Shown here piece by piece: positions 155 to 16,016 of a stretch of 27,325 nucleotides of DNA; position 1 is the stretch's first letter; each line of letters starts with the position of its first letter. This DNA comes from an uncultured Leptospirales bacterium (lineage in GTDB: Bacteria > Spirochaetota > UBA4802 > UBA5368). The translations under genes were made by a program, and so were the position numbers. Below the pieces are notes generated by a model that saw nothing but the letters and a program-made list of their open reading frames with translations, was not told the origin of the DNA and did not search any database. The DNA is taken from NCBI GenBank assembly GCA_964510075.1, contig CAZEAH010000001.1:1-27325 (forward strand), given 5' to 3'.

Positions 155-958
155 TCAGAAATGCCTGCGAAAGAAACGCTCGATGCCCTGCCAGATTTTT
201 CTGCGCAGGTCGAGCATGCGCACGCTGTTGACGGAAAGGTCGTCGTGGCGGAAGTAGCGGTCGTTGATGAACAGGGCGCGCGACACGGAAAGCCGAAGGA
301 GCGGGACCTTCCCGCGGCCGTGGCGCAGCATGATGTGGCTTTCGAACAATGGAGAGTTGAGAGCGAACGGCTCGCCGACGGTCCACTCCTCGCTTCCGAG
401 CGATTTCCGCATGGATTCGAGCAGGCCGCGCGCCGTCTCGTCGGGGCAGGTCTTCACCGGCGATCCCCGGTCCATCACCACGTTGTTAACGGTTACCAGA
501 GGCCTCGGCCTTCCCGGGTCCGCGGCGTTTTTGGGGCCCACCGCCATCATCGTGTGGCAGTCGAGGACCAGCCGTATCCGGCCGGTCTCCAGGATCTTTT
601 CGACCGCGCCGTGAAAACCGTGGTAGTAGCGCAAGAGCAGGTTGTTTATCGCGATCTCGTCGGGAAAGACCCCGGGGGGGTAGATGGGAACGCCCGCGCT
701 CGTGCTCTTCTTCACCACCCCGTCGTCGGTGCGCGGCGCGAGCATCAGGTGGTGCCGGTCCAGGTCGACGAACAGGCGGCTTATGGGCGAGTCGATGCGC
801 TCGGCGATAGTATCGCCGAAGTCGAAAAGCACGTCGGCGCAGGCGTCGGACTCGAAGAAGAGTTCGAAGTCGCCGAGTATTTCGTATCCGGCGAGCTCGT
901 CCGGAACGCTCCGCCCGGCATGCGGTACGAGGATGAGGATGGGAAGGCCCCGCTTCAT
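155..958 (-). CDS. N-formylglutamate amidohydrolase family protein (267 aa)
   Basis: Motifs ILVPHAG, SRLFVDLDR and LVLDCHTM are typical of the family. Start moved to ATG 958 (MKRGLPILILVPH); the upstream 42 codons of the ORF call look non-protein-like. Confidence 0.8.
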   Translation of the reverse strand: MKRGLPILILVPHAGRSVPDELAGYEILGDFELFFESDACADVLFDFGDTIAERIDSPISRLFVDLDRHHLMLAPRTDDGVVKKSTSAGVPIYPPGVFPDEIAINNLLLRYYHGFHGAVEKILETGRIRLVLDCHTMMAVGPKNAADPGRPRPLVTVNNVVMDRGSPVKTCPDETARGLLESMRKSLGSEEWTVGEPFALNSPLFESHIMLRHGRGKVPLLRLSVSRALFINDRYFRHDDLSVNSVRMLDLRRKIWQGIERFFRRHF

Positions 959-1110
959 GGCGTCCGGCACGCACCGGCCGGCGGCCGGAACCCCGGGGCC
1001 ATACGGGCGGGGCGGCCCGTTGCGTTGTACAGTCTTACAAGTTCGTCGTTCATGGTCGTTGCGGGAACGGCCGCCGCGCGGCAAATTTGTACGGGTACGG
1101 CAAAATACTA

Positions 1111-1139
1111 TTGACGGAGCGGAGAGTAAAGCGTTAATT
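1111..1139 (+). promoter_or_regulatory. Candidate sigma70 promoter for the Lrp/EndoIII-like operon
   Basis: TTGACG-N17-TTAATT in the only AT-rich patch of this intergenic region. Confidence 0.4.
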
Positions 1140-1298
1140 CAATTGTTTTCGCGCCCTCCGGGACGAGCGGACCGGCATCGCGCCGTTTCGGGCCGCCGGC
1201 GAGGCGTGGTGCATCCGGAAGGGCGGTTTGTTCCGCCGGGGAAAGGGAGCGGGACGGGCGCCGGACTCCGGCGCGACAAACTCAATCAGGAGATAGCG

Positions 1299-1805
1299 AT
1301 GCGAGCATACAAGACCGACGAAACCGGGGAGGCCATCCTCGAGATTCTCACCGCAAACGCCAAGGCGACCGCGGAGGACATCGCGCGCCAGCTCAACGTG
1401 ACCGAGAGCAGGGTGTCGAAATACATCAAGCAGTTCGAAAAGGACAGGATCATTCTGAGATATAAGACGCATGTAAACTGGATGAGGGTTCGCAACAACC
1501 AGGTGCGCGCGCTCATCGAGGTGAAGGTGATCCCGGAGCGCGGAGTGGGTTTCGACGCGGTCGCCGAATCCATCTACCGCTATCCCGAGGTGTCGTCGGT
1601 GTTCCTGCTGTCCGGAAGCTACGACCTTCTGGTGCAGGTGGAGGGGCCGACGCTCCAGCAGGTTTCACTCTTTGTGTCGGAGAAACTCGCGACGATCAAG
1701 AACGTACAGTCCACCGTCACCCACTTCCTGTTGAAAAAATACAAGGAGGACGGTGACGTGCTCGTCGACCAGCCCGAGTCCAAGCGTCTGCCTATGAGCT
1801 TCTAA
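1299..1805 (+). CDS. Lrp/AsnC family transcriptional regulator (168 aa)
   Basis: N-terminal HTH (ILEILTANAKATAEDIARQLNVTESRV), C-terminal effector domain (VFLLSGSYDLLVQV...TVTHFLLKKYK). CAGGAG SD before ATG 1299. Confidence 0.92.
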   Translation: MRAYKTDETGEAILEILTANAKATAEDIARQLNVTESRVSKYIKQFEKDRIILRYKTHVNWMRVRNNQVRALIEVKVIPERGVGFDAVAESIYRYPEVSSVFLLSGSYDLLVQVEGPTLQQVSLFVSEKLATIKNVQSTVTHFLLKKYKEDGDVLVDQPESKRLPMSF

Positions 1806-1808
1806 GCC

Positions 1809-2468
1809 GTGACGTCTCTTTCGGCTGTTTACCGCGCGCTGTTGGCGCGTTACGGTCCCCAGCACTGGTGGCCGGGCGAAACCGATTTCGAGATCGCGAT
1901 CGGCGCAATCCTCACGCAGAACGTTGCGTGGACCAATGTCGAGAAGGCCATTTGCAGGCTGAAGGAGGAAAAACTTCTCTCTCCGAAGGCCCTGCACGGC
2001 GAACCGGTCGATAGAGTGGCCCGGTTAATACGTCCCGCAGGGTACTACAACCAGAAGGCGAAAAAGCTCAAAAACTTCCTGGACTGGTTTTCCTCGTACG
2101 GCTATTCTTTTCCGCGACTGCGGGAGCTCGATGCCGGCCGACTGAGGGAGGAGCTCCTCGGGATAAACGGCGTCGGGCCGGAGACGGCCGATTCGATTCT
2201 GCTATACGCACTCGAAAAAAGGATTTTCGTGGTGGACGCCTATACGAAAAGGATTTTCGGCCGGCTCGGCATCCTCGAGGGAACCGAGGGATACGATGAG
2301 ATCCAGCGCCTTTTCCACCGCCGCTTTGCCGCCGGCGTCCGTGAATACAACGAATACCATGCCCTCATCGTGAATCACGGCAAATACGTATGCAGGAAGA
2401 AGCCGCTGTGCGCCGAATGCTGTCTTGCGCGGCTTTGCGCTTTTAAAGGATCCGGCCGGGCTATTTGA
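1809..2468 (+). CDS. Endonuclease III-related HhH-GPD DNA glycosylase with 4Fe-4S cluster (219 aa)
   Basis: WWPGET...GAILTQNVAW, HhH LLGINGVGPETAD, FVVDAY, C-terminal C-x6-C-x2-C-x5-C (CRKKPLCAECCLARLC). Confidence 0.9.
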   Translation: MTSLSAVYRALLARYGPQHWWPGETDFEIAIGAILTQNVAWTNVEKAICRLKEEKLLSPKALHGEPVDRVARLIRPAGYYNQKAKKLKNFLDWFSSYGYSFPRLRELDAGRLREELLGINGVGPETADSILLYALEKRIFVVDAYTKRIFGRLGILEGTEGYDEIQRLFHRRFAAGVREYNEYHALIVNHGKYVCRKKPLCAECCLARLCAFKGSGRAI

Positions 2469-3192
2469 CGCGGATGAGCGAGCAGACCTCGCCGGTGTCG
2501 CTCGAGGCGGTCTCCGTGTTGTAGATGTCGAGCGACCACTCCCCGTCGACCACATAGCAGTAGCGGAAGGCTCCCGGATGGAGTTTTTTTCGCAGTCTCC
2601 AGATGCCGTCGCGGCCGCGCGAAAGGGGATCGTTCTCGGGGTTCCAGTTGTTGAAATCGCCGACTATGGAGACCATGCGCGCCTTCGGGCGGTGCAGCCG
2701 GAATTCGACCGTGCGGGCGTCGAGTGAACGATAGGTTACCTGCGGCCCCTCGAAGTCGTTGAAGGCCGGGAGGATCGAGACATACGAGCCCATGCCGTCA
2801 TCGTCGCTTGCGGGATTGCGCGGATCGTGGATCCAGACGCCGTCTACGATGAACTTGTAGCGCGGCTGTCCGCCTTCGAGTCCGCGGGTCAGGAAATGGT
2901 ACCATACGCCGTTCGCGCCCCGTTCCATCGCCAGCGGTTTCCAGTGAGAGAAGTCTCCGGCGAGAAGCACGCGCTTCGCCGCGCGGCTTTTATATGTTAC
3001 AAGGATCCCCCTCTCCACAACCTGTTTCTGCCGTTCCCTGTCATAGCGAATAAGTTTCATCTCGGCAGGCATTCGCGCTTCCCGGAGAAAACGCAGATCG
3101 TAGTAGTTGTCCTCCTTGGGTGCGGCGCCCTCCATGGGGCCGAAGGCGGTGAGCAGTACCGGCAGGAGCGCGAAGATGGTGCGGAATCCCAT
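2461..3192 (-). CDS. Exported protein with two CBM48/AMPK-beta-type glycogen-binding (early-set) domains (243 aa)
   Basis: Two modules (VLLAGDFSHW...RYKFIVDGVWIHDP and VSIVGDFNNW...RYCYVVDGEW). Hydrophobic N-terminus MGFRTIFALLPVLLTAF from ATG 3192. Confidence 0.85.
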   Translation of the reverse strand: MGFRTIFALLPVLLTAFGPMEGAAPKEDNYYDLRFLREARMPAEMKLIRYDRERQKQVVERGILVTYKSRAAKRVLLAGDFSHWKPLAMERGANGVWYHFLTRGLEGGQPRYKFIVDGVWIHDPRNPASDDDGMGSYVSILPAFNDFEGPQVTYRSLDARTVEFRLHRPKARMVSIVGDFNNWNPENDPLSRGRDGIWRLRKKLHPGAFRYCYVVDGEWSLDIYNTETASSDTGEVCSLIRVK

Positions 3193-3469
3193 GCTGAGGA
3201 CCTCTGTGCCAAAATGAGTTACAGCGATATAGTACTTATGTCGATAACTAAAGAGAAAATATTTATGTAAAAAAGAACCGGTGCCGGAATTACGCGCCCG
3301 GCGGCGAACGAAAGGCGCGCTTTTCTTCCGTATGACGCGCGGGCACACGAAAAGTAATTGCTTTTTATAAAACGGTGGATTGTGCTGAATTATGTCGCTT
3401 TTTGGCCGTGCGAGGCGCCGCGCCTCTCCGGCTCAGGGCGTACAATCCGCCTCGGGACTGTAAACGGTG

Positions 3470-6400
3470 ATGGGCGATAGCGAAGAAAGGACAGCATACA
3501 CGCCGGAAGAGCAGAGCGAGATCGACAGAATACTGGGCCTTCTGCCGGGCGAGTCTTCCGGCAGAGATGCCGTGGAAGAGTCGAGGCCCGCTCCGTCCCT
3601 GACGCGGACGATGGTCGAGGACGAGGATGCCTATGACCTCAGTTCGGACCTTGTCGAAATCGATGAAACCTCATCGTCGGCCGCCGATGAGATAGAGGAC
3701 ATCACCGATATCATCGAGATGGTGGAGGAGCCTTCCGCCGTCGAAGTTCCGGAATCGAGAGAGCCGTCATTCGAAGAGGCGCCCGCGGCCGAAGCCCCGC
3801 CTGAAATGGAAGTGCTGCCCGAGGAGGAGTTGCCGGCTTTCAAGGAGGAAGCCGCGCCCCCGCCTCCACGGCCCGGCAGGAAGGCGCGCACATCGCTCGA
3901 AGAACTCGACGAGCTCACCTCGATGGAACCCGAATCGGTGGATCTTCAGGATGTTTCCGACGACCGTTACGTCGACGAGGTGGAGGCCCCGCGAGCGCCC
4001 GAAATTGAAGAACCCGTCGGAGCGGAGGAATCGATCGAGCCGTTCGACATGGATCTGGGCGGCCTCGAGGAGCCTGCTCCCAGGCCGTCCGGTATGCGGG
4101 TCGAAAAAGAGACCGATATCGATATCGGCACTCTTTCGGATATATCCGTAGAGGAGATACAGGACATACCCGACGCGGGCGCCGCAGATATACCCGAATT
4201 TGATCTGGGTGAAATGGTCCCCGAGGGGGAGATGCCGCCTTCGCCTCCTCCCGCGCGCGAGGCCCCGGCCGCCGACTACATGGAAGATTTCCACGACGAA
4301 GGAATTCCGGAGCCGCTCGATATGGGGGAAAGGCCTCCTGTGTCTCGAAGGGCCGCCCCCGCGGCTGATCTCGATATCGGAATGGAGCGGGAGGAGATGA
4401 TTCCCGGCATCGGCCGAATCGAGGAGGCGGTGAGCACTGAGGAGATCCCGGATATCGAAGAGGAAGAGCCCCCGCCGGAGCCTGAGAGAAAGAAAAAAGA
4501 GCGTGCCGAGGCGAGGCCGGAGGAAGAGGACGAGCTCTCCGATCGCGACATCCGACGATTGAAAAAAGCGCTTCTTCTGTTCCACCCGGCCCTGCGAAAG
4601 GCCGTTAAAGACGCCATTCTTAACGACCTTCTGCCGCCGGCGGACTCGCGGCATCTCATCGATATGATTCTCTCGGGAAAGCCCGAGGACAACGTACACC
4701 GCTTCCTCGAGAAAAAACTCGGGCGAAGCATCGATATAAGCGAGGGACCGGCGCCGGGAAGGCGTGTGCTCACCTCGCGTCCCGAATACACGCGCGAAGG
4801 CCTCGAGCGCCAGAAGCGCCTGCTTAAGGCCACCCGCATAGGCGGTATCGCCGCGCTGGCGGCGTTTGCGGTCACCATCCTGAGCTACCAGTTCATCTAC
4901 AAGCCGATGATGGCCAAGCGGCTCATAAAGGAGGGCGTTGCGCTCATCCGCGAGCAGGGCGATCCGGTAACCAAGAAGGTGAAGGATTTCGAGAAGGCCG
5001 AGGAGCTGTTCGCCAGAGTTGACGCCGAATACGCGAAGGACTACCTCCCCGGCTACAACGCCTACGCCCGGGCCTATTTCGACAAGCGCGAGTACGAGCT
5101 CGCGCTCGGCAAGCTCGAGCGCGCGAACAAGATCGATCCGGTCGATATCGACACGCTCAATAACTTGGGCTACTTTTACTCAAGAGTGCCGGAGGGCGTG
5201 TATAACAGGATCAAGCGGGCCGACGAGAAGGACTCGAAGCTCGATAAGGCGATCAAGTACTACCGGTACGTGCTCAACCGGAAGCCCGAAAACGTGACCG
5301 CGCTTTACGGCATTGGGAACGCGTACATGTACCAGGGGCAGTACATCAAGGCCCGACAGTACTATGAGGACATCCTTAAGGTCGACAGCAAATCGGTCGT
5401 GGGCTATTCCGGTCTTCTCAACCTCTACATCGAACGCGACGTGATGCCGCGGGTGATGGCAATCCACTCGGACCTTGTCGACAAGAAGATTCTGACCGAT
5501 ATCCCGTCGCACCTGCTCGGAAAGCTCGCCGCGTATTACATCGGGAAAAAGCGCACGGAAAGCACCAATATCCGCGTTGATTTCGGCGTTCAGTCCTCGC
5601 GGTTCAAGGATCCGGCCGACAATCCGTTTCCGGCCGCCAGGGCGGTCCTGGACGCGCTCCACCGGAAAGACCCGCGCTATCCGCAACAGTACGTGCTGTA
5701 CGCCAGGCTCAGCAGGGAGGAAAAAAACCTCAAGCTGATGGAGAACTACGTTCACAAGGCGCTCAAGGAGGAGCCGAATTACTTCGCTGCGTTGCACCTG
5801 CTGGGCGAGTATCATTACGCGGTCAAGGAACCCGTTAAAGCCTTCGACGCGTTTAAGCGGGCCGTAAAGGCCAGCCTCTCCCCGCCCGACTTCACCTACG
5901 AGGATTTCTATTTCGAGACCGAAAACGTCGGCAACAGTTATTTTTACATGGGCAACGTCTTCTACTATTTCTTCGACAGGGTGAAGTACCGTTTCGGCGA
6001 CGAGCTCGAGGAGGAGCCGCTTGACGCCGAGGTCGAGCAGCAGGCGAATTATATCATCGCGCGCGAGAAGTACGAGGCGGCGCTTAAGGAAGGATTCAGG
6101 TCGCCGGAGCTCTTCTATAATATCGGCCGTATTCACTACATGAACGGCCAGTACGAGCGCGCGCTCGAAAGCTGGCTCGAGCTGTACGAGGAGTCCGTGG
6201 ACAGCCCGGAGGTCATGCTCGCGATGGGTAACGCCTTTTACCATCTCGACAATCTGGAGGCGGGAAGAGGCGAATACCTGAAGCTCATATCAATCTTCGA
6301 GCGGCGGGCGGAGTCGATAACCAAGATTTTCCCGGACCGCGCCGACCACGTGAAGGTCTTTCAGACGCTCGCCACGGCATACAACAACCTGGGCGCCGTA

Positions 6401-6601
6401 TATCAGCGCAAGAACGACGAGACCAGAAGCAACGTGAGCTACTGGAAGGCGATCGATTACGCCAAACGCATCGATCGCGAGAACGAATTCGCCCGGGTGA
6501 ACATGGCCCGCGCCTTCAAGGAACGCAGCGAGCCCATCAAACCGATCCTCGACGAAAACATCCCCTTCGCTCTGTCCGTCTACAGCAAGGACATGCGCTG
6601 A
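3470..6601 (+). CDS. flcA: FlcA-like periplasmic flagellar collar protein: acidic cytoplasmic N-region, one TM helix, TPR-rich C-region (1043 aa; GTG 3467 is an alternative start)
   Basis: About 350 aa Glu/Asp/Pro-rich region, a TM segment IGGIAALAAFAVTILSYQFIYKP, then many TPR-like repeats. The architecture matches spirochaete FlcA; orthology is inferred, not tested. Confidence 0.65.
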   Translation: MGDSEERTAYTPEEQSEIDRILGLLPGESSGRDAVEESRPAPSLTRTMVEDEDAYDLSSDLVEIDETSSSAADEIEDITDIIEMVEEPSAVEVPESREPSFEEAPAAEAPPEMEVLPEEELPAFKEEAAPPPPRPGRKARTSLEELDELTSMEPESVDLQDVSDDRYVDEVEAPRAPEIEEPVGAEESIEPFDMDLGGLEEPAPRPSGMRVEKETDIDIGTLSDISVEEIQDIPDAGAADIPEFDLGEMVPEGEMPPSPPPAREAPAADYMEDFHDEGIPEPLDMGERPPVSRRAAPAADLDIGMEREEMIPGIGRIEEAVSTEEIPDIEEEEPPPEPERKKKERAEARPEEEDELSDRDIRRLKKALLLFHPALRKAVKDAILNDLLPPADSRHLIDMILSGKPEDNVHRFLEKKLGRSIDISEGPAPGRRVLTSRPEYTREGLERQKRLLKATRIGGIAALAAFAVTILSYQFIYKPMMAKRLIKEGVALIREQGDPVTKKVKDFEKAEELFARVDAEYAKDYLPGYNAYARAYFDKREYELALGKLERANKIDPVDIDTLNNLGYFYSRVPEGVYNRIKRADEKDSKLDKAIKYYRYVLNRKPENVTALYGIGNAYMYQGQYIKARQYYEDILKVDSKSVVGYSGLLNLYIERDVMPRVMAIHSDLVDKKILTDIPSHLLGKLAAYYIGKKRTESTNIRVDFGVQSSRFKDPADNPFPAARAVLDALHRKDPRYPQQYVLYARLSREEKNLKLMENYVHKALKEEPNYFAALHLLGEYHYAVKEPVKAFDAFKRAVKASLSPPDFTYEDFYFETENVGNSYFYMGNVFYYFFDRVKYRFGDELEEEPLDAEVEQQANYIIAREKYEAALKEGFRSPELFYNIGRIHYMNGQYERALESWLELYEESVDSPEVMLAMGNAFYHLDNLEAGRGEYLKLISIFERRAESITKIFPDRADHVKVFQTLATAYNNLGAVYQRKNDETRSNVSYWKAIDYAKRIDRENEFARVNMARAFKERSEPIKPILDENIPFALSVYSKDMR

Positions 6602-6606
6602 GCCGC

Positions 6607-6637
6607 CCGAACGCCGCCAAAGCGTTACGGCGTTCGG
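6607..6637 (+). terminator. GC-rich hairpin after flcA (possible terminator without a U-tract)
   Basis: Perfect 10-bp inverted repeat CCGAACGCCG/CGGCGTTCGG, 11-nt loop, 5 nt after the stop. It is followed by A7 rather than U's, so it is non-canonical. Confidence 0.5.
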
Positions 6638-6645
6638 AAAAAAAC

Positions 6646-6673
6646 TTGTAAATCTCGCGGCCCGCCTTATTAT
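6646..6673 (+). promoter_or_regulatory. Candidate sigma70 promoter upstream of the SNF2 ATPase leader
   Basis: TTGTAA-N16-TATTAT, preceded by an A7 tract (UP-element-like). Confidence 0.55.
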
Positions 6674-6729
6674 GTCTCATCCGTCCAACGAGATATCCCG
6701 ATGACTGTTTCCCGGGTACATTCAGGCGC

Positions 6730-6751
6730 GGCTCCGGCAGGGGCCTTTTTT
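6730..6751 (+). terminator. Intrinsic terminator inside the 5' leader of the SNF2 ATPase gene
   Basis: GGCTCC-GGCA-GGGGCC stem-loop (6 bp, one G-U pair) followed directly by T6. Confidence 0.6.
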
Positions 6752-6786
6752 ACGGCCGCGCCCGTACGCCGGGCGTGGAAAAAGAA

Positions 6787-9606
6787 ATGAAACCGGATAC
6801 GCTGTCCACAGCCGAAGACCTTTTCGCGTTCGCGCCTGAGGAGCCCGACGAAGCCGTTGTCCGCGGCGAGGAGGAGATACGAGCGCTGCTTGAAGCCGGG
6901 ATCGTGCCGGTCGGCCCGCGTTTCGAGCTGCGCGCCGAGTCCTGCGCTCTTAGGCTGGCGCACGCCAATAACAAGATACTTTCGCTCTCCAATTCCCGCA
7001 CGCGCATCCTTGCCCACCAGGTGGAGAGCACGCACCGTATCGTCAACAGCCTCAAGCAGCGCTTCATCATCGCCGACGAGGTCGGCCTCGGCAAGACGAT
7101 CGAGGCGGGGCTGGTCATCAAGGAACTGATCTACCGCCACGGCTATTCGAGGATACTCATCGTCGCCCCCGCGTCGCTTTTGCTCCAGTGGCAGCACGAG
7201 ATGGAGAACAAGTTCAACGAGCGTTTCGAGGTTCTCGACCGCCGCTTCATCAGGCGGGCGGAGTCCCTGGGTACAAGGGGTTCCAATCCCTGGCAGTCTT
7301 GCGGAAAGGCGATATGTTCGCTCGATTTCATCAAGAACAGGTCCTTCAGCGAGAGCCTGGCCTCGTGCCGCTGGGACGCCGTCGTATTCGACGAGGCTCA
7401 CCGCCTGCGGCGGGACTCGCAGCGCAGTACCCTCGCCTACGCGGTCGCCGAGGTGCTGTCGCGCAACACGCGTTCGCTTCTTCTACTAACCGCGACGCCG
7501 TTCCGCGGAAAGATCGAGGAGCTCTATTATCTGGTCCGGCTGGTCGATAAAAACCTTCTGGGGCCGTTCCAGACCTTCTACAACCGGTTCTGCACCGACA
7601 ATGCCGACCTCGCGGAGCTTCGCGACCGTCTTTCGTCGGTGCTCATCCGCCGGACGAAAAAGGAGGTCGGAGGGTTCACCCGGCGGTTCGCGCGGACGGT
7701 GCGTTTCGAGCTGTATCCGGAGGAGCGCGCGCTGTACGACGCGACGACACGTTATGTGGTCGAGGAGTTCAACAGGGCCGTGCAGACGGAGAACAGGGCG
7801 GTGGGATTTGTAATGACCGTTTTTCAGAAACTGCTCGATTCGTCATCGTTTGCGCTGCTTACGGCGCTCGCCAACAGGCGTGAGAACCTCTCGATCATGC
7901 TGGAGCGGGCCGAATCCGTCCCAGCGGCGGACGGGTTCGATCCCGACGACGCGGACATCGACGACGAGAACGCCGACGAATCGGTGGCCGCGCTGGCGCG
8001 CAAAAGCGCCGCGGAGATCAGAGAGGAGATCGCCACGCTCGACCGCCTTCTGGCGCTCGCGCGCTCCATAGAGCGCAATAAAAAAGGCGAAAAACTCGTC
8101 TCCCTCCTGCGCCAGCTCCGAAGGAAGGGGTGCGCGAAGTTCATCATATTCACCCAGTTTCGCACAACTCAAGAGTACCTTCGCGGCCTGCTCCGGGGGT
8201 TCGATGTGGTCCTGTTTCACGGCTCCATGGACAGGGAGGAGAAGGAGAAGGCGATCCTGGACTTCAAGGGCGACGCCGAGGTTCTCATCTGCACCGAGGC
8301 GGGCGGCGAGGGCCGCAACATGCAGTTCTGCAACATCCTCATCAACTACGACCTTCCGTGGTCGCCGCTCAAAATCGAACAGCGCATAGGCAGGATACAC
8401 AGGTTCGGCCAGCCCCACGACGTCTTCATCTACAACTTCTCCACCCGCGATACGGTCGCCGAGCGCGTACTGGAGGTGCTCGAGAAGAAGCTCCGGCTCT
8501 TCGAGGAGTCGATCGGGGTTCCCGATGTGCTGCTGGGCCAGATCGAGGACGAGCTCGCCCTTTCGAGCCTGTTTATGGAGATGGCTGCCGGAGGGAAGCC
8601 CCGCCGGAGAATCCTTGCGGAAATCGATGAACGGATCGAGAACGCGCGGCGCAGTTACGAAAAGCTCGCCGACCTCACCGTGGCGCGGAACCTGGACTTC
8701 AATTACGACGAATACTACTCCATAACCATGAAAGAGCGCCAGTTTTCAAACCGGCGTATCGAGCGCTTCGTCGAGCGGATGGCGCAGGAGGACGGTCTGG
8801 TCGGCGAGTACCTCGGAAGGAGGAACGCGCGGACAGGGCTGTACCGGATCAAGCGCCTGCACGGACGCCCCCCCGAGACTCCCTGCTACGGCAGTTTCGA
8901 CAGCAGGGTGGCGCTCGATAACGAGGGGATGGAATTTCTCGCTTTCGGCCACCACATAGTGGACACGCTTTTCGAGCACTGCGTTTCCGACGCTTTCGGC
9001 GGGAAGACGGGAGTGAAGCTCATACGATCCGCGGTGCCGTACAGGGGTATGGTCTTCTGTTATCTGGTCTCCTGCAGCGCGCTTTCGAATACGCAGGAGT
9101 TTTTGGTTGTCGCGGCCGATGGAACCGAAAGGGACGAGGGCGAGCTCGAGGAGGTGGAGAGGGAGTTTGTCGAGCAGGAAGGTGCCGCTGCCGCCGGTGA
9201 TGAACTGGAAGGCCTGGTCCGCACCGTCCTTTCCGGTCTGGATCGGTGTTTCGAGGAGGCACGGCGCAGAGTGCGTGAAAAGGTGGAGAAAAGGCTTGGC
9301 GAACTGCGCGAGACGTTTGAACTTTCAATCGATCCGGAGATCGAAAAGATAACCGAGGCTTCCGAAAGCCGAATCAAGGAACTTTCCGAGCAGCTCGAAC
9401 GCCAGGAATGCAGGCAGAAGTGGTACGGAAAGGATATGCGCAGCGCGCTCACGCGCACGAAAAATGAGATCGCACAGGTCGAGCTGGAACGTGAACGACT
9501 GCTTGCTGCATACCGCCGTTCCGGCGAGGCCAGACCGCAGATACGGCTCGTATGCGCCGGGGTGCTGATCGCCCTTCCGGCAAAGCTCAGCCCAGATGTT
9601 TTTTGA
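6787..9606 (+). CDS. SNF2/RapA(HepA)-like SF2 ATPase with C-terminal coiled-coil region (939 aa; GTG 6775 is an alternative start)
   Basis: IIADEVGLGKTIEAG (motif I), DEAH (II), TATP (III), TEAGGEGRNMQ (V), YDLPW, QRIGRIHRFGQ (VI). Confidence 0.9.
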   Translation: MKPDTLSTAEDLFAFAPEEPDEAVVRGEEEIRALLEAGIVPVGPRFELRAESCALRLAHANNKILSLSNSRTRILAHQVESTHRIVNSLKQRFIIADEVGLGKTIEAGLVIKELIYRHGYSRILIVAPASLLLQWQHEMENKFNERFEVLDRRFIRRAESLGTRGSNPWQSCGKAICSLDFIKNRSFSESLASCRWDAVVFDEAHRLRRDSQRSTLAYAVAEVLSRNTRSLLLLTATPFRGKIEELYYLVRLVDKNLLGPFQTFYNRFCTDNADLAELRDRLSSVLIRRTKKEVGGFTRRFARTVRFELYPEERALYDATTRYVVEEFNRAVQTENRAVGFVMTVFQKLLDSSSFALLTALANRRENLSIMLERAESVPAADGFDPDDADIDDENADESVAALARKSAAEIREEIATLDRLLALARSIERNKKGEKLVSLLRQLRRKGCAKFIIFTQFRTTQEYLRGLLRGFDVVLFHGSMDREEKEKAILDFKGDAEVLICTEAGGEGRNMQFCNILINYDLPWSPLKIEQRIGRIHRFGQPHDVFIYNFSTRDTVAERVLEVLEKKLRLFEESIGVPDVLLGQIEDELALSSLFMEMAAGGKPRRRILAEIDERIENARRSYEKLADLTVARNLDFNYDEYYSITMKERQFSNRRIERFVERMAQEDGLVGEYLGRRNARTGLYRIKRLHGRPPETPCYGSFDSRVALDNEGMEFLAFGHHIVDTLFEHCVSDAFGGKTGVKLIRSAVPYRGMVFCYLVSCSALSNTQEFLVVAADGTERDEGELEEVEREFVEQEGAAAAGDELEGLVRTVLSGLDRCFEEARRRVREKVEKRLGELRETFELSIDPEIEKITEASESRIKELSEQLERQECRQKWYGKDMRSALTRTKNEIAQVELERERLLAAYRRSGEARPQIRLVCAGVLIALPAKLSPDVF

Positions 9607-10109: not shown

Positions 10110-10703
10110 ATGAACGACAGATCTCTCCCAATACTGTATCTCCAGAAGCAGGTGGTGTTTCCGTACTGTAACGTCTCCTTCAGGTCGACCAGCCGCACCC
10201 TCTCCGGGATCGGCCAGGGGGACAGGGTGGTGGCGCTTCCGGTTCGCACCGTGCTTGACGGCCTGTTCCCCCGCGGAAGACTGGCGACCCTTTCGGAGGT
10301 GGTTGAAATACAGCGGGAGGATGACGCCTGGAATGTTCAGCTTAAGGGCGTCTCGAGGGTGTTAATCCGGCGTGTCATCAAGTTCAGCGCGGTCGAATAC
10401 GATGCGATCGACGAGACCGAGCGTGCCGGCCAGGAGCGGCTGCGCGAGGACCTGCGCAAAAAGTCACAGGAACTTATATTCCTTATAAACGTCAACGAGT
10501 CGGACAAGCTCATCCATCTGCTCAATTTCCTGGTGAACCTTCCGCAGCTTTCAGATTTCGTGTCGAATTATTTCATTTTGAAATTTCCGCGCAGGTATGA
10601 GATATTCACCGAAAGGGACGTTGAACTGCGCGCGCGAAAACTGCTCGTTGTGCTCGACGAGCTGATCGCGGACCTGAAGGTGAAGAGGGAAAGGGAGCGG
10701 TAA
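10110..10703 (+). CDS. Stand-alone Lon protease N-terminal (substrate-binding) domain protein (197 aa)
   Basis: LPILYLQKQVVFP start, LATLSEVVEI...VQLKGVSRV, helical end (QLSDFVSNY...TERDVELRARKLL). No AAA+ or protease domain. Confidence 0.75.
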   Translation: MNDRSLPILYLQKQVVFPYCNVSFRSTSRTLSGIGQGDRVVALPVRTVLDGLFPRGRLATLSEVVEIQREDDAWNVQLKGVSRVLIRRVIKFSAVEYDAIDETERAGQERLREDLRKKSQELIFLINVNESDKLIHLLNFLVNLPQLSDFVSNYFILKFPRRYEIFTERDVELRARKLLVVLDELIADLKVKRERER

Positions 10704-11167
10704 TGAAGAAAAGCGTGGTAAACGACGACGTTTTCTACACCATCGCCTGGTCGCGCCTTATCGCGTACGAGAAGCATTCGGCCTCGCGGATCCTGCCCGA
10801 AATGCCGGGCATACTCTGCCTTCTTGAACGCCGTCCGCGCGGCGCCATGAAATATCTGATTTTCTACGGGTGCTGGCGCGACGGGCTGAGGATGGCCCTT
10901 AAAAATTTCCTTGATCCTGACTTCACTAAATTCCCTGCCATAAACGCGGGGCTCAAGGGGCGCAGCCTTTTCTACAAATACTCCGTGGTCGATACCAGTA
11001 TGCAGGACATGCAGGACATCATGTTCTGGCTTATCCGGACCTACAGGCCGGAATTCAACGCGCTCGAGGGATTCGAGGACTCCAGGCGGTATAAAAACAT
11101 ATCGATTAGAGAGATGGATCTGGGGGAGGACAGCGTGATCGAGCGTCTTCCGAAAACCGGGCTGTAA
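10703..11167 (+). CDS. Hypothetical protein with degenerate GIY-YIG/UvrC-N-like pattern (154 aa)
   Basis: Start overlaps the upstream stop (TAATG). The motifs LPEMPGIL, IFYG..DGLR and LIRTYRPEFN resemble the GIY-YIG fold. The CDS is well supported; the fold call is tentative. Confidence 0.65.
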   Translation: MKKSVVNDDVFYTIAWSRLIAYEKHSASRILPEMPGILCLLERRPRGAMKYLIFYGCWRDGLRMALKNFLDPDFTKFPAINAGLKGRSLFYKYSVVDTSMQDMQDIMFWLIRTYRPEFNALEGFEDSRRYKNISIREMDLGEDSVIERLPKTGL

Positions 11168-11176
11168 GCCGCCTGC

Positions 11177-11824
11177 CTACTTCCGCTCGGGCGCGAGCCT
11201 GAGATCCTCCGCGGTGTATATGTGGGAGACGTTCCGGTTGAGCGCTATGAATTCCAGCACGTATTTCAGCCGGCATGCCGCGTCGAGCGGGGAGGCGACG
11301 CTGTTATCGGTTCGGGGCGACGCCTGCATGATTCGTTTGACGTTCATGCTCCTGGCGTCGGGATCCGGCTCGAAAACGTCCGCGCGAAAGCGCAGGTAGG
11401 TTTCATAAATAGAGCGGATTATCGCGTCGGAACGGATGAGCCAGGCGATGTGCAGGTTGGAGTCGGAATCGTGCATGTTCCGTGTGAAGTATTTGAGTAT
11501 CCGCAGAACGATTTCCGGGTAGAGGTGCTCGTTGACGAGGTCGATCACTCTGGCCTCAAGCTCCGGGTCTATCATCCGCATCGAGGGGTAGGCGAGGCTC
11601 GGGATGTGGGCGATGCCGGTCCTGGCCTTGAACGCCGCGTAATCGAGAAACCGGTCCAGCGAATCCTTTCGCATGATGTCGGTGTCGCGGTAGGTGTCCT
11701 CAAGAAGGACGGACGCGACCGCCTCGAGGTCGCGTTCTTTCAGAAGGTTCTCGATGTTGATCGACCGGCTGGCCTCCAGCGCCGCCGTCAATTCCGCCAC
11801 GCTTCCGTTGAGATACTCACCCAT
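11177..11824 (-). CDS. Hypothetical protein, predicted helical (215 aa)
   Basis: Protein-like composition from ATG 11824, 19 nt after the upstream stop. The longer ORF call overlaps the upstream gene. No family recognised. Confidence 0.7.
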   Translation of the reverse strand: MGEYLNGSVAELTAALEASRSINIENLLKERDLEAVASVLLEDTYRDTDIMRKDSLDRFLDYAAFKARTGIAHIPSLAYPSMRMIDPELEARVIDLVNEHLYPEIVLRILKYFTRNMHDSDSNLHIAWLIRSDAIIRSIYETYLRFRADVFEPDPDARSMNVKRIMQASPRTDNSVASPLDAACRLKYVLEFIALNRNVSHIYTAEDLRLAPERK

Positions 11825-11843
11825 CGTTTGAAAGCCTGTTGAA

Positions 11844-12722
11844 TCAAAAATTCCGGCGGGCGGCAAGCCGTACCGAACGGTGGAAGGGCTCCCTGCTGTT
11901 GTATTCGTACACATTGCGGACCGAGGATACCAGGGAGTACTGGTATACCGTGAATTCCGCGAAGCCGAATACCGCCATCCTGAATTTATTATCGTCCCGC
12001 CACGCATCGTAGATTAGATAGATAAAGGCGGAGTTGGTCAAAAGGGCGAGGAGGCCTTCCAGGTACCTTCCGGTGTAGAAATGCCCGAAGCCCGGAATGA
12101 GGACCGATCCCCCCACCGAAAGAGCCAGGCTTTTGCGCGGACGGTTGATCTCCTCATCGATGAGACGTTCGAGTTCACGCGCCCGGTCCGCGTATGCGCC
12201 GCCGGGGAACGATGCGTTGTGCGCTTCGAGGGCCGTCCTGGCCCCCTCGAAATCCGACTGCAGCGCCAGTGCGAAACAGGCGTCGATTCCCGCCTCTTCC
12301 CGGTGGAGCCCTTCGGGATACACGGAGAGGTATTCCTGATAGGTGCGCAGAGCGAAGAACGGCGAGCCGGTCATAAGGCGGATGTACCCAAGGGAGAGAA
12401 GGGCCTTCTGCGCCTCGGGCTTCTCGCGGTATGTCCGGTAGCAGTGCGAAAAGGCTTCGGCGGCCTCGTAGTAGTTTCCCCCACGGTAATAGGCCTCTCC
12501 CGTAAGCAGGAGCGAAACGGGAACCAGTGCTCCGTCAGGGTACAGGTGGCGGTACCGCATCCCTTCGGTGACGGTCGAGTAGTAATCGCCGCCGGCCAGG
12601 TTCGTTTTCATGAGAGAAATGATGTCTTCCCCCGCGGCGAGGACCGGACACGGCCGCAGCGAGATGAGCAACGCGATCGCCATTGCCGTTGCGCCGATAA
12701 TGCCTGTGGTGCGGAGCTTCAC
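11844..12722 (-). CDS. Signal peptide + BamD/CpoB-like TPR region + C-terminal membrane domain (292 aa)
   Basis: Hydrophobic N-terminus. TPR pairs (LLLTGEAYYRGGNYYEAAEAF, YQEYLSVYPEG). C-terminal SVLIPGFGHFYTGRY followed by hydrophobic helices. Confidence 0.75.
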   Translation of the reverse strand: MKLRTTGIIGATAMAIALLISLRPCPVLAAGEDIISLMKTNLAGGDYYSTVTEGMRYRHLYPDGALVPVSLLLTGEAYYRGGNYYEAAEAFSHCYRTYREKPEAQKALLSLGYIRLMTGSPFFALRTYQEYLSVYPEGLHREEAGIDACFALALQSDFEGARTALEAHNASFPGGAYADRARELERLIDEEINRPRKSLALSVGGSVLIPGFGHFYTGRYLEGLLALLTNSAFIYLIYDAWRDDNKFRMAVFGFAEFTVYQYSLVSSVRNVYEYNSREPFHRSVRLAARRNF

Positions 12723-12731
12723 GGACGCGCC

Positions 12732-13643
12732 CTATCGCACCGGCTCAGGAAGTATGCCGTCCGCATAGGGCCGGTAGTCGGGCACCGAGTGCACTATGCC
12801 CGCGCCGAACCGTTCGGTCTGCGCGCGGTTGAATTCGCCCGCGGCGTTCCATGCCCCGTAGATGCTGCCGCCGTACGCCAGGACGGCGAAAAAACCGAGC
12901 GTAAAGGCGACATTGCGATGCCCCTCCCTCCATGCGAGCGCCGTGCCCGCACCCAGGGCAAGTACGGTCGTTATGCTCCAGAGACCGTCGGCGAATCTTC
13001 CGGCATAGGTCTGGCCGGCCCCGGGGAGTGCGGCGGAGAGCGCGGCGGCAAGCGGTTTCGACCGCGACGGAAGAGCGTCGTAGGCCGAGAGCCGGTCCCG
13101 CAGTGTCGGCAGAACGGAATGCGGATAGAGCTCGGATCCCTCACGGGCCATTCGGAAGGCGGGGGCGAATTCGCCGGCCAGAACGCGTATTTCCACGGAG
13201 CGTATGTAGAATTCCTCGCCGGCCGGGCCATCGGGCCAGGGGGCGGCGTTTTCCAGCGCGCGCACCGCCTCCGCGTACGCGCCGAGACGGGAGAGCGCCC
13301 GGGAGTACAGCAGAAGCGAACCATGGTCGAGGCCGGTAAGCGCCGGCCTGAGGTTTTGCACTACCGTCCGGTACTGCCCGGCGCGGTAGTAGTTGACGTT
13401 GATGAAATGCTCGAGCTCGCGCTTGCGATCGGCCGGCAGAAACGCCATGAGCCTCCTGGTTTCGGCGATGCACTCGAAATGGCGCCCCTCGGCGTACAGT
13501 GTGCGGATGAACGCCGACTGCATCTTAAGGAAATCCTCTCCCGCGGCGAATAGCGTTCCGGGCGTCGCGACCGCCAGCAAAAGAGCGGCGAGCAGCCGCG
13601 TCGCGGGCGGAAATACGGCAATTCCCGTTATGCGTGTTCGCAC
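12732..13643 (-). CDS. Signal peptide + TPR region + C-terminal membrane domain, paralogue of the downstream gene (303 aa)
   Basis: GTG start 7 nt after GGGGAG. TPR-like helices. C-terminal SAALPGAGQTYAGRF followed by hydrophobic helices. Confidence 0.75.
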   Translation of the reverse strand: MRTRITGIAVFPPATRLLAALLLAVATPGTLFAAGEDFLKMQSAFIRTLYAEGRHFECIAETRRLMAFLPADRKRELEHFINVNYYRAGQYRTVVQNLRPALTGLDHGSLLLYSRALSRLGAYAEAVRALENAAPWPDGPAGEEFYIRSVEIRVLAGEFAPAFRMAREGSELYPHSVLPTLRDRLSAYDALPSRSKPLAAALSAALPGAGQTYAGRFADGLWSITTVLALGAGTALAWREGHRNVAFTLGFFAVLAYGGSIYGAWNAAGEFNRAQTERFGAGIVHSVPDYRPYADGILPEPVR

Positions 13644-13646
13644 CCG

Positions 13647-14048
13647 TCATCTCCCCAGGACTTCCGGCGGCAGAGGATCCTCCCCGGGCGGGGAATAGGG
13701 ATTGCACCTCAGTACACGGTCTCCCGCAAGGAGGGAACCCGCGAACAGGCCGAAGCGTTCGACCGCCGCCGCGGCATAGGCGCTGCACGTGGGATGAAAA
13801 CGGCAGTTGGGGCCGTCCTGCGGCGAAACCACCACCTGGAAGAATCGGATGAGCAGGTGTCCAGCCGCCTGGGGCGCTCCGTATGCCGCGTGTCTGCGGG
13901 CACGCCTCGAACGCTCGGAAGGGATCAGCTCGTCGCCGACTTTAACGTCCGAATTCCATGGTATGAAGGAATCCTCCGCGGCGAGCTCTCGTGTGGAGAG
14001 TATGAGGAGAAAAAGGGCGATGCACGATGCCAGCCGTTTCATGCTCAT
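13647..14048 (-). CDS. YidD-like (membrane protein insertion efficiency factor / DUF37) protein with N-terminal signal-peptide extension (133 aa)
   Basis: LIRFFQVVVSP..GPNCRFHPTCSAYAAAAVERFG...DRVLRCNP is the YidD signature with all 3 Cys. It is not in the rpmH-rnpA-yidC locus, so no gene symbol is assigned. Confidence 0.85.
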   Translation of the reverse strand: MSMKRLASCIALFLLILSTRELAAEDSFIPWNSDVKVGDELIPSERSRRARRHAAYGAPQAAGHLLIRFFQVVVSPQDGPNCRFHPTCSAYAAAAVERFGLFAGSLLAGDRVLRCNPYSPPGEDPLPPEVLGR

Positions 14049-14064
14049 TTCGCGGATCGTTCTT

Positions 14065-14688
14065 TCAGGTGTAATAGCGCTTCTGCTCGCGCACGGTCGA
14101 CACGGGGAACCTGCCGTAATTGTGCCCGGGCCAGATCTTCGTGTCGTCGGGCAGGCGGAGTATGATGTTGATGATCGAGTTCATGATCGCGGTCTGTGAC
14201 CCGCCGGGCATGTCGGTGCGCCCCATGCCTTCGGTGAACAGCGTGTCGCCGGTGAACAGATTGCCGCCTGCAAGCACACAGATGCTTCCGGGGGTGTGCC
14301 CCGGCGTATGGATGATGTCAAGGCTCTGCCGGCCGAGGGGAATGGTCTCTCCGCCGCGCAGAAGCATGACCGGTTCGGGAGAGACCCTTCCGCCCAGTGT
14401 GAGCGAGAGCACGCGGTTGGGGATGCTGCGCGCGTGTTCCGCGTCTGCCTCGTGGATGAGGAGGGTGGCGCCGGTCTTCTTTACCACACGGGCGTTTCCC
14501 GACGTATGGTCCCAGTGGCCGTGCGTGTTTATCACATAGCGCACCGTAGCGCCGTGGCGCTCGACGGCCCCGAATATCTCGCCGAAATCACCGGCGGGAT
14601 CGATGAGCGCGGCCTCGCGCGTCTCCTCGTCGCAGAGGAGGTAACAGAACACGGACATCCATGTGACTTCGATCTGTTCGATGATCAT
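14065..14688 (-). CDS. MBL-fold metallo-hydrolase, glyoxalase II/YcbL-like (207 aa)
   Basis: THGHWDH (HxHxDH), HTPGHTPG, FTGDTLF, WPGH. GGAG SD before ATG 14688. Confidence 0.92.
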   Translation of the reverse strand: MIIEQIEVTWMSVFCYLLCDEETREAALIDPAGDFGEIFGAVERHGATVRYVINTHGHWDHTSGNARVVKKTGATLLIHEADAEHARSIPNRVLSLTLGGRVSPEPVMLLRGGETIPLGRQSLDIIHTPGHTPGSICVLAGGNLFTGDTLFTEGMGRTDMPGGSQTAIMNSIINIILRLPDDTKIWPGHNYGRFPVSTVREQKRYYT

Positions 14689-14758
14689 AGGGTATACTCC
14701 GGTGCGGAGCGGGCCGTCTTCCGGTGACGCGTGCGGGCCGCGGCCGGACCGGAACGAC

Positions 14759-14788
14759 GTTGTACCAGCTTCCGCGGGGTTTTGGCAA
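14759..14788 (-). promoter_or_regulatory. Candidate sigma70 promoter for the MBL-yidD-TPR operon
   Basis: Minus strand TTGCCA-N18-TACAAC with a TGn extended -10 (TGG). Confidence 0.5.
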
Positions 14789-14800
14789 GATAAAAAACGA

Positions 14801-14829
14801 TTGCATTTATCGATTGCCGGAAATATCGT
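14801..14829 (+). promoter_or_regulatory. Candidate sigma70 promoter for the PP2C-like gene
   Basis: TTGCAT-N17-TATCGT, back-to-back with the leftward promoter. Confidence 0.55.
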
Positions 14830-14873
14830 TTTGACCGACCGCATTCAACAGCGGAGGGATAACTGCATAACGA

Positions 14874-16016
14874 ATGGGCACCGAAACCTTCATCGATCGA
14901 TTCATGCGCTCCCTCGATGCTCTGAGGGGAGTGCTCCCGATAGGCTGTATGGACGTCATCGTGCGGAGGGACGGCGCCTATGTTTCGAAGATGAAGAAGC
15001 TGTTCGATGAATCCTTCCCCGTGGTCTCGCTTTCGCGGCTTATCGAGACAGGGGCCCTCGGTTCGGTCAGGGGCTCTCCGGTGCTCGATCTTAAATTTAC
15101 GGGCGCGGGCGGGGACGTCTATTCGTCGCTTTTTCCGCTCACCGGCGAAGACGGCGCCGGATACATCATGATGCAGGGCTCCACGCCGCTCGGAGAGACA
15201 GGGAAGGCGCTGGGGCTCTTTCTTGCCGATCTGCTGGCGGATCAGGCGGACGGAACGGCGCGCGAAACCGATGATGCAGGCGATAAGTATCGCGAAGGCG
15301 TACTCGGCATGCGCGAGATTCAGGCCAAGCTCTTTCCCCGGTTCGAGGACGTGGAGGGTCTGGACATCGCCTCCGTGTACCTGCCCGTGGAACTGATGTC
15401 GGGTGATTTCATCGACGCCTTTTTCCTCGACAAGGACACCTACCAGATCACCGGCTGTGATGTGACCGGTTACGATGCGGCCTCGTCATACGCGGGAGCG
15501 GCCATGCGGACGCTTATCAAATCCCTCTCATCGAAAAAGATCGTTCCGTCGGCGCTGGTGGACCTGGCGGTTTCAAAGCTGGACAAAGTGCTCGACGAAT
15601 TGCACTCCCTTGTCTACATGACGATCTTCCAGATTGAACCGAAAACCGGGAAAACGAGGATTTCCTCACTCGGCCGACTGAATACGATTTTATACAAGGC
15701 CTCCAAAAAAGGCTTCATCGTACTCAATAAAACCTCAATCGGGAGCGATCTGTCCAAGCGGCATTCCTTTAAGGACATATCGTTCGTTCTGGAACCGGGC
15801 GATATACTGCTTTTCCATTCAAACGGCGTTGTGGACATCCCCACCGAAGACGGCAGGGCGGTCTTCGGGGAGGAGAGGATCGTCCAGTGTCTCAACGAAA
15901 ACCTTGCCGAATCGTCAATGGAAATCGTCCATGCGCTGGTGGAGTCGCTGTCGGCTTTCACCAATCACTCCGGTTTCGCGTTCGATGTTCTGTTCGTCGG
16001 CATAAAGAAAACTTGA
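14874..16016 (+). CDS. SpoIIE/RsbU-type PP2C phosphatase-domain protein, possibly inactive (380 aa)
   Basis: YLPVELMSGDFID, CDVTG, LEPGDILLFHSNG, FGEERI and terminal FDVLFVGI follow the RsbU motif order. The N-terminal region is unassigned. Confidence 0.8.
   Translation: MGTETFIDRFMRSLDALRGVLPIGCMDVIVRRDGAYVSKMKKLFDESFPVVSLSRLIETGALGSVRGSPVLDLKFTGAGGDVYSSLFPLTGEDGAGYIMMQGSTPLGETGKALGLFLADLLADQADGTARETDDAGDKYREGVLGMREIQAKLFPRFEDVEGLDIASVYLPVELMSGDFIDAFFLDKDTYQITGCDVTGYDAASSYAGAAMRTLIKSLSSKKIVPSALVDLAVSKLDKVLDELHSLVYMTIFQIEPKTGKTRISSLGRLNTILYKASKKGFIVLNKTSIGSDLSKRHSFKDISFVLEPGDILLFHSNGVVDIPTEDGRAVFGEERIVQCLNENLAESSMEIVHALVESLSAFTNHSGFAFDVLFVGIKKT

Follow-up and report, generated by a model that had tools for sequence, protein, structure and literature searches.

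A conserved four-gene locus of uncultured Spirochaetota encodes a long-form, probably exported YidD-family protein, two paralogous TPR-membrane proteins and an orphan family

Background

YidD proteins are nearly universal in bacteria, and the view of their molecular role reportedly rests on one modest study in E. coli. The canonical protein has about 70–100 residues and is encoded in an rpmH-rnpA-yidD-yidC cluster; in E. coli it is said, after the work of Yu et al. in 2011, to be on the cytoplasmic face. Here we describe a yidD gene of a different kind, found in a stretch of 27,325 nucleotides (nt) from an uncultured Leptospirales bacterium (contig CAZEAH010000001.1 of assembly GCA_964510075.1, positions 1 to 27,325), which as a whole is referred to below as the 27-kb window. 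This gene encodes a long-form YidD-family protein and is followed by genes for two tetratricopeptide repeat (TPR) membrane proteins of 303 and 292 residues and for a further protein of 215 residues, for which the names TPR-A, TPR-B and DOWN, respectively, were coined in this analysis. The four genes form a closely coupled unit that is conserved throughout a deep clade of Spirochaetota.

The long form has in common with canonical YidD a full domain scoring above both family cut-offs, with the amphipathic helix and the three cysteines in the pattern CRF.PTCS.Y ... RC.P. It differs in its length of 133 residues and in having both an N-terminal hydrophobic segment and an acidic motif, neither of which is present in canonical members. 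Its gene is associated with TPR-A and TPR-B instead of the canonical cluster, and its YidD domain is predicted to lie on the opposite side of the membrane from that reported for the E. coli protein. In Leptospira interrogans, yidD adjoins yidC (PMC13066512).

A functional analogy, and no more than that, can be drawn with YfgM and PpiD, which are ancillary periplasmic subunits of the SecYEG translocon of E. coli (PMC8082313); cross-linking evidence for YidD is described in the same paper. The likeness lies in an inner-membrane-anchored periplasmic TPR-like protein that is paired with a membrane-associated biogenesis helper. The two systems have no sequence relationship, the membrane attachment of YfgM-PpiD is by one N-terminal transmembrane segment rather than by the C-terminal multi-helix domain of TPR-A and TPR-B, and the partner there is a parvulin-like chaperone rather than a YidD domain.

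At the level of domains, TPR-B shares its TPR fold and repeat type with YbgF/CpoB and with BamD (PF13525), and Foldseek searches find both BamD and the YbgF/CpoB structure 2xev. Unlike YbgF/CpoB, it stays below the family cut-off, has no coiled coil in its model and no tol-pal context, and carries an added C-terminal membrane domain; unlike BamD, it stays below the respective cut-offs, lacks a lipobox cysteine and a bam context, and has C-terminal transmembrane helices. The membrane domains of both TPR proteins resemble TM2 (PF05154), DUF5683 (PF18935) and DUF6677 (PF20382) in having a helix-kink-helix element with a P-G-x-G-x-x-Y-x-G motif followed by transmembrane helices, and differ from them in being fused behind a TPR domain and in occurring as an obligate paralog pair. 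To our knowledge, TM2, DUF5683 and DUF6677 have no known bacterial function.

Results and discussion

The gene cluster in the window

The genes for a metallo-beta-lactamase (MBL)-fold hydrolase, YidD, TPR-A, TPR-B and DOWN lie in this order on the minus strand of the window (Table 1), separated by 16, 3, 9 and 19 nt. A preliminary description of this region, made from the sequence of the window, had proposed that an orphan YidD-like protein and two paralogous TPR-membrane proteins constitute an undescribed envelope module, in an apparent operon with the MBL hydrolase. When the open reading frames (ORFs) were re-read from the sequence, their positions, their strand and the gaps of 16, 3 and 9 nt were found to be exactly as given there; the YidD-like identity and the paralogy were confirmed by the family and pairwise searches detailed below, and the label orphan holds in that no rpmH, rnpA or yidC was found within the 27-kb window. 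That reading stopped one gene short, at TPR-B, leaving out DOWN, and it missed what is probably the export of the YidD domain.

The module genes are not chance ORFs, since 74 homologues were found for TPR-B and about 97 of the long form for the YidD protein. A 490-residue ORF on the plus strand (12081–13553), antisense to TPR-A and TPR-B, is without homologue support and is most likely an artefact of high G+C content. In addition, the literature search returned nothing on a YidD-TPR module, DUF5683 or DUF6677, in line with the earlier view of the trio as an undescribed cluster, and the module is probably a previously undescribed, new and probably exported form of a YidD-family factor with dedicated partners.

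Conservation of gene content and gene order

Two sets of loci were assembled. A scan of one genome per GTDB species with two peptide patterns, starting from TPR-B, gave 77 genome loci, and a scan of metagenomes with an alignment of long-form YidD proteins gave 80 further loci. Family searches on the flanking sequences of the genome loci detected a relative of the TPR pair in 75 of the 77, both paralogs in 70, the YidD gene in 69 and DOWN in 72; loci in which one member is missing are mostly on truncated contigs. TPR-A is directly downstream of YidD in 65 of the 67 metagenome loci with at least 600 nt of downstream sequence, and TPR-A, TPR-B and DOWN are all present in 40 of the 43 with at least 2.8 kb downstream. 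The order yidD, TPR-A, TPR-B, DOWN is nearly invariant in both sets, and the trio is conserved, a point on which the preliminary description had made its proposal depend; conservation across phyla, which it had suggested surveying, is not seen, as all module-carrying loci are from Spirochaetota and the sole locus recovered from Planctomycetota (L077) encodes no YidD and, by way of membrane proteins, only generic ones of the zinc-ribbon and PGxGxxY types.

The spacing of the genes is equally characteristic. A 4-nt overlap joins TPR-A to TPR-B in 71 of 127 loci and the YidD gene to TPR-A in 48 of 141, with a distance of 0–25 nt between the latter two genes in another 49; TPR-B and DOWN are separated by 0–25 nt in 69 of 113 loci. 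Such 4-nt overlaps indicate translational coupling. Contigs from the metatranscriptome runs X27 and X30 cross the TPR-A/TPR-B and TPR-B/DOWN junctions, which fits co-transcription, although DNA carry-over could also account for them. Low-depth metatranscriptome contigs cover parts of all four module genes.

The 74 homologues of TPR-B (E ≤ 5e-51) are all from metagenome-assembled genomes (MAGs) of Spirochaetota, and the module-carrying loci of the genome scan come from MAGs plus one single-cell genome. No isolate genome, and hence no cultured spirochaete, was recovered in the scan with the two peptide patterns. The hosts are uncultured spirochaetes of digesters, sludge, sediment and hot springs. 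DNA nearly identical to window positions 10900–15100 was also found in metagenomes from anaerobic digesters, sludge, bioreactors and hot springs. Median identity to the window proteins is 53% for DOWN, 49.5% for YidD, 41% for TPR-B and 33% for TPR-A; the clade is deep, with only about 55% identity for the product of the neighbouring housekeeping gene psd. The module is a single-copy locus of the core chromosome with conservation at the level of housekeeping genes.

The long-form YidD family

The YidD protein of the window matches PF01809 with 82.7 bits (cut-off 27) and TIGR00278 with 71.3 bits (cut-off 40). Its homologues are split by a gap in score into about 97 long-form proteins (roughly 110–180 residues, above 100 bits) and canonical proteins of 70–100 residues (below 80 bits); the long-form group also includes some shorter gene calls without the N-terminal segment. 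Four parts can be distinguished in the long form: a hydrophobic N-terminal segment, an acidic motif, a variable basic linker and a complete YidD domain. In 46 aligned sequences the cysteines C82, C88 and C115 are invariant, within the pattern ISPQDGPNCRF.PTCS.Y...RCNP.

Several features of the N-terminal segment suggest that it directs the protein across the membrane. It is followed by the residues AA and then (G)ED, as are the N-terminal hydrophobic segments of TPR-A and TPR-B, and in 43 of 46 long-form proteins its N-terminal flank is more positive than its C-terminal flank. We predict it to be either a signal peptide or an anchor of N-in/C-out orientation; as this orientation is implied by the charge bias, the YidD domain of the long form probably faces the periplasm.

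In the AlphaFold2 (AF2) model, with a predicted local distance difference test score (pLDDT) of 77, a helix at residues 3–17 is followed by a disordered stretch (18–57), a helix at 58–73 with a hydrophobic moment of about 0.4, and the core. The acidic motif lies within the disordered stretch, and its region has a pLDDT of only about 52–54. F28, P30 and D39 of the motif are nevertheless at least 90% conserved in the family alignment, and mean column conservation is 0.54 for the motif versus 0.27 for the linker that follows. Low pLDDT combined with conservation would suit a peptide that is ordered only in its bound state, and the motif is therefore a candidate docking peptide. No PDB match to the YidD protein was obtained, either by sequence search or by fold search with the AF2 model.

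The TPR-A and TPR-B families

TPR-A and TPR-B align over their full length with 25% identity (BLASTP, E = 2e-9), and the motifs SVLIPGFGHFYTGR and SAALPGAGQTYAGR, of the PG.G..Y.G type, are both present in their C-terminal membrane domains. Members of either family score 215–413 bits with the hidden Markov model (HMM) of their own family and 23–95 bits with that of the other. By these scores, the two are full-length paralogs that form separate orthologous groups, both of which have been retained; since the own-family scores far exceed the cross-family scores, the duplication appears to be old. Retention of both copies fits what would be expected of a hetero-oligomer, and to this extent agrees with the heterodimeric membrane scaffold put forward in the preliminary description; the function proposed there, in the handling of membrane proteins or lipids or in quality control, is an inference.

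The AF2 model of TPR-B (pLDDT 91) consists of a signal helix, TPR-like hairpins (residues 31–192), a helix (199–216) kinked at PGFG and two long helices (220–242 and 246–275). Foldseek matches to this model are confined to the TPR part and comprise the YbgF/CpoB TPR domain (2xev, TM-score about 0.8, 25% identity), BamD and generic TPR proteins. The sequence matches are of the same kind and remain below the respective cut-offs: E = 3e-14 and 53.5 bits versus 90.1 for TIGR02795 (YbgF), 22.6 bits versus 25 for PF13525, and 30.1 bits versus 81.4 for TIGR03302. PF13525 is among the precomputed annotations of many TPR-B homologues.

Conservation is higher in the C-terminal membrane domain than in the TPR part, both in TPR-A (0.55 versus 0.42) and in TPR-B (0.62 versus 0.51). 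In TPR-B the PGFGHFY motif is invariant, as is the C-terminal Phe, and the tail is strongly basic. Because of this higher conservation and the invariant polar and aromatic residues, the membrane domains are probably more than anchors. In 15 to 29 of 42 members, the membrane part has sub-threshold matches to DUF5683, DUF6677 and TM2; for the two window proteins these reach 15–18 bits against cut-offs of 24–28, i.e. below the gathering threshold, including a weak DUF5683 match in TPR-A. The best E-values of individual members range from 2.7e-6 to 1.6e-4, and the resemblance should be read as a likeness of motif and architecture only.

Two other interpretations of TPR-B were considered and rejected. 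The C-terminal Phe is not part of an outer-membrane beta-signal, as the residues before it show no alternation and the model has a helix there. The protein is not a lipoprotein either, as the cysteine in its signal region is not conserved.

The DOWN family

DOWN is the most conserved member of the four-gene module, with 28 invariant, mostly polar columns in its alignment. Sequence prediction finds neither a signal peptide nor a transmembrane segment, which suggests that the protein is probably cytoplasmic. No match was obtained in Pfam or in the PDB, and only 19 relatives were found among 1.84 billion cluster representatives. On this basis DOWN is a clade-restricted orphan family.

A proposed role in the cell envelope

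We propose, with a rough probability of 0.35, that TPR-A and TPR-B form an inner-membrane complex that holds an exported YidD domain at the periplasmic face and aids envelope biogenesis or quality control, with DOWN bound to the tails. TPR-A and TPR-B would be exported at their N-termini, and each would be anchored in the cytoplasmic membrane by a C-terminal domain that resembles TM2/DUF5683 and has about three helices. The two would pair, by way of these conserved domains, into a hetero-oligomer with its YbgF/BamD-type TPR domains in the periplasm. The long-form YidD would be exported as well, and its disordered acidic motif may dock on a TPR groove, which would place the amphipathic helix and the three-cysteine core on the periplasmic leaflet. 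The resulting complex might assist, as an accessory factor, in the biogenesis of envelope proteins or in their quality control, analogous to YfgM-PpiD at the periplasmic side of SecYEG, and DOWN may bind the basic cytoplasmic tails. A stronger formulation is more tentative still: possibly, if doubtfully, the four proteins are one hitherto unrecognised four-part envelope machine in which a YidD domain works outside the cytoplasm, is held by a dedicated TM2-like heteromeric pair and is coupled to a lineage-specific cytoplasmic protein.

Several points weigh against this proposal. We infer the topology, the formation of a complex, docking by way of the motif and the function alike, and the predicted topology derives solely from hydropathy and charge rules. 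For TPR-A, whose tail is not clearly basic, the C-terminus could be oriented either way. Even in E. coli, what YidD does at the molecular level is weakly established. Adjacency of yidD and TPR-A is not obligatory, because the two are apart in six loci, i.e. in four genome loci, where about 4 kb of other genes is inserted, and in two metagenome loci. Moreover, synteny within one phylum can partly reflect common descent. Finally, the membrane-protease genes in or beside the module (see below) lend weak supporting context to the proposal, but such neighbours occur in only about 12 of the 77 genomes and could be coincidental.

Alternatively, the four genes could be neighbours without a common machine. 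The long-form YidD would then be the clade's only YidD, a relocated housekeeping protein, its linkage to the other genes would be inherited synteny, and the TPR proteins and DOWN would be unrelated to it. In keeping with this, all module loci come from one phylum, a canonical yidD could not be demonstrated in module-carrying genomes, and other genes split yidD from TPR-A in the six loci mentioned. We nevertheless regard it as unlikely. The upstream flank varies by sub-clade, consisting of psd with a cytidylate-kinase-like gene, of the MBL gene or of another (methyltransferase-like) set, and has thus changed repeatedly, whereas the four-gene core has remained constant. In addition, the frequent 4-nt overlaps point to co-translation, the N-terminal extension and motif typical of YidD in this clade are seen only where the TPR pair is present too, and DOWN exists only where the module exists.

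The properties of DOWN could alternatively point to a trans-envelope sensor or regulator, in which the periplasmic TPR domains would sense a cue, the membrane domains would signal to DOWN in the cytoplasm, and YidD would be a ligand or co-sensor. A probably cytoplasmic protein with so many invariant polar columns, more conserved than its partners, would suit such a role, as would the strongly basic tail of TPR-B with its invariant terminal Phe and the genes for PilZ and a SpoIIE-type phosphatase nearby. However, none of the four proteins has a recognisable signalling, DNA-binding or enzymatic domain, and the genes for PilZ and the SpoIIE-type phosphatase are found on other strands and not in every locus, which makes this explanation rather improbable.

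The similarity of the TPR-B repeats to YbgF/CpoB, the closest relatives of this domain, raises the question of a spirochaete-specific scaffold, either for periplasmic flagella or for a Tol-Pal/CpoB-like coordination of cell wall and outer membrane. A weak match to the flagellar collar protein FlcA (E = 0.003) points in the same direction. Yet the YbgF/CpoB and FlcA scores are all below family cut-offs, no tol, pal or flagellar gene is present in any locus, and the peptide-pattern scan recovered MAGs and one single-cell genome and no cultured spirochaete; there is little to recommend this scaffold as the function of the module. It is most improbable that the exported YidD domain is a membrane-active, haemolysin-like effector with the two membrane proteins as handlers or immunity proteins, for although PF01809 was historically called the 'haemolytic domain', yidD is still listed among putative haemolysin genes in staphylococcal surveys and the domain has a predicted export signal here, the locus is a single-copy core-chromosome locus with housekeeping-level conservation, is without mobile elements, polymorphic toxin features or a secretion system, and has no PADLOC match. 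A reading as a defence system was rejected for the same lack of a PADLOC match.

The proposed periplasmic complex would have consequences beyond this clade. A lineage in which YidD carries an export signal, a docking-like motif and three partner genes amounts to a natural experiment on the binding partners of YidD and on the side of the membrane at which it is able to work, and the module may thus provide a handle on what YidD proteins do. If the YidD domain is indeed outside the cytoplasm, YidD would be a general membrane-active module rather than a YidC-specific helper. The module also provides a first genomic partner for the uncharacterised TM2/DUF5683-like membrane motif.

Distant loci and canonical yidD loci

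A distant Spirochaetota contig (L076, 4994–7310) encodes a diverged long YidD with an insertion in its domain, followed by a single TPR-membrane gene; an overlapping gene for a 318-residue protein is also present. This YidD retains a remnant of the motif, DV.VG.ED, and the locus may represent an ancestral two-gene state of the module.

Canonical rnpA-yidD-yidC-jag loci adjoining dnaA were found in L078 (3493–5886) and L162 (2633–4522), both from soil MAGs. The YidC proteins encoded there are unusually short (252–274 residues). The best hits of canonical type, P0172 and P0187, are in rnpA-yidD-yidC-jag loci of the MAG assemblies ERZ25039512 and ERZ25039501, the module MAG being ERZ25039503, and relatives of P0172 are from Proteobacteria and other phyla. 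The gene clusters that recur in the 77 genome loci include neither rnpA nor yidC; the metagenome loci were searched for the module genes, psd and MBL only.

Features of the locus and neighbouring genes

The coordinates of the module genes, their domains and the adjacent genes are collected in Table 1.

Table 1. Coordinates, within the 27-kb window, of the module genes, their parts and the adjacent genes
Feature	Position	Strand	Basis or remark
MBL-fold hydrolase (glyoxalase II-like)	14065..14688	-	PF00753, E = 6.8e-27; 16 nt upstream of the YidD gene
Long-form YidD-family protein, 133 residues	13647..14048	-	PF01809, TIGR00278, family alignments, AF2 model
YidD, N-terminal hydrophobic segment, residues 1–24	13977..14048	-	Hydropathy 1.79, charge bias, helix 3–17 in model
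YidD, motif F-x-P-W-N-x-D-V-x-V-G-D-E, residues 25–41	13926..13976	-	Alignment conservation; predicted disordered linker
YidD domain, residues 58–133: amphipathic helix, then three-cysteine core	13650..13877	-	Alignment, model
TPR-A, 303 residues: predicted signal peptide, helical-repeat domain, C-terminal membrane domain with PG.GQ.Y.G motif	12732..13643	-	
TPR-A, membrane domain, residues 191–275	12819..13073	-	Hydrophobic segments at 220–238 and 245–263
TPR-B, 292 residues: predicted signal peptide, YbgF/BamD-like TPR domain, C-terminal membrane domain	11844..12722	-	
TPR-B, membrane domain, residues 193–275: kinked helix 199–216, helices 220–242 and 246–275	11898..12146	-	
DOWN, 215 residues, fourth gene of the unit	11177..11824	-	Starts 19 nt past TPR-B
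LonN-domain gene (10110–10703) and gene for a 154-residue protein (10703–11167)	10110..11167	+	PF02190, E = 3.3e-8

The start of the MBL gene is probably at 14688 rather than at 14844. This gene, which the preliminary description placed in an operon with the trio, is indeed separated from yidD by the small gap seen in the window; as no more than 27 of the 77 genome loci carry it, it is a variable neighbour outside the conserved core. On the other side of the module, the LonN-domain gene (197-residue product) and the gene for the 154-residue protein lie beside DOWN in 65 and 68 of the 77 genome loci, respectively. The stop codon of the former overlaps the start of the latter, and the pair converges on the module. 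These two genes constitute a separate transcription unit and are at most tentative members of the module.

The remainder of the window is ordinary chromosome, with genes for an AsnC regulator, Nth, a SNF2 helicase, PilZ, psd, PanC, DnaE and others. The genes for a 1044-residue TPR protein and a 943-residue SNF2/RapA-like helicase (3467–9606, plus strand) keep their linkage to the module in many genomes (clusters c6 and c13).

Four genome loci of a sub-clade (L015, L020, L068 and L074, at about 900–5000) have about 4 kb inserted between yidD and TPR-A, with genes for a PrsW-family intramembrane protease that is fused to a cyclic nucleotide monophosphate (cNMP)-binding domain, and for a Ser/Thr-rich protein that is secreted and has CBM60 and Y_Y_Y domains. 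TPR-A is not found behind yidD in L133 and L155; the content of the insert is known for the former four loci only. In three genomes of a sub-clade (L034, 1977–4113; L046, 1833–3936; L056, 744–2868) the genes for a DUF898 membrane protein and an M48 peptidase with a DUF7092 domain lie upstream of the module, between psd and the MBL gene; a fourth member of the M48 cluster, in L007, is on the far side of the locus. Finally, four genomes carry, between TPR-B and DOWN, a gene for an exported protein of about 190 residues (L018, 1017–1592; L022, 6990–7562; L029, 6899–7474; L039, 6677–7288), which has no Pfam match and contains a HELYH (HExxH) motif, and which is possibly a novel metalloprotease.

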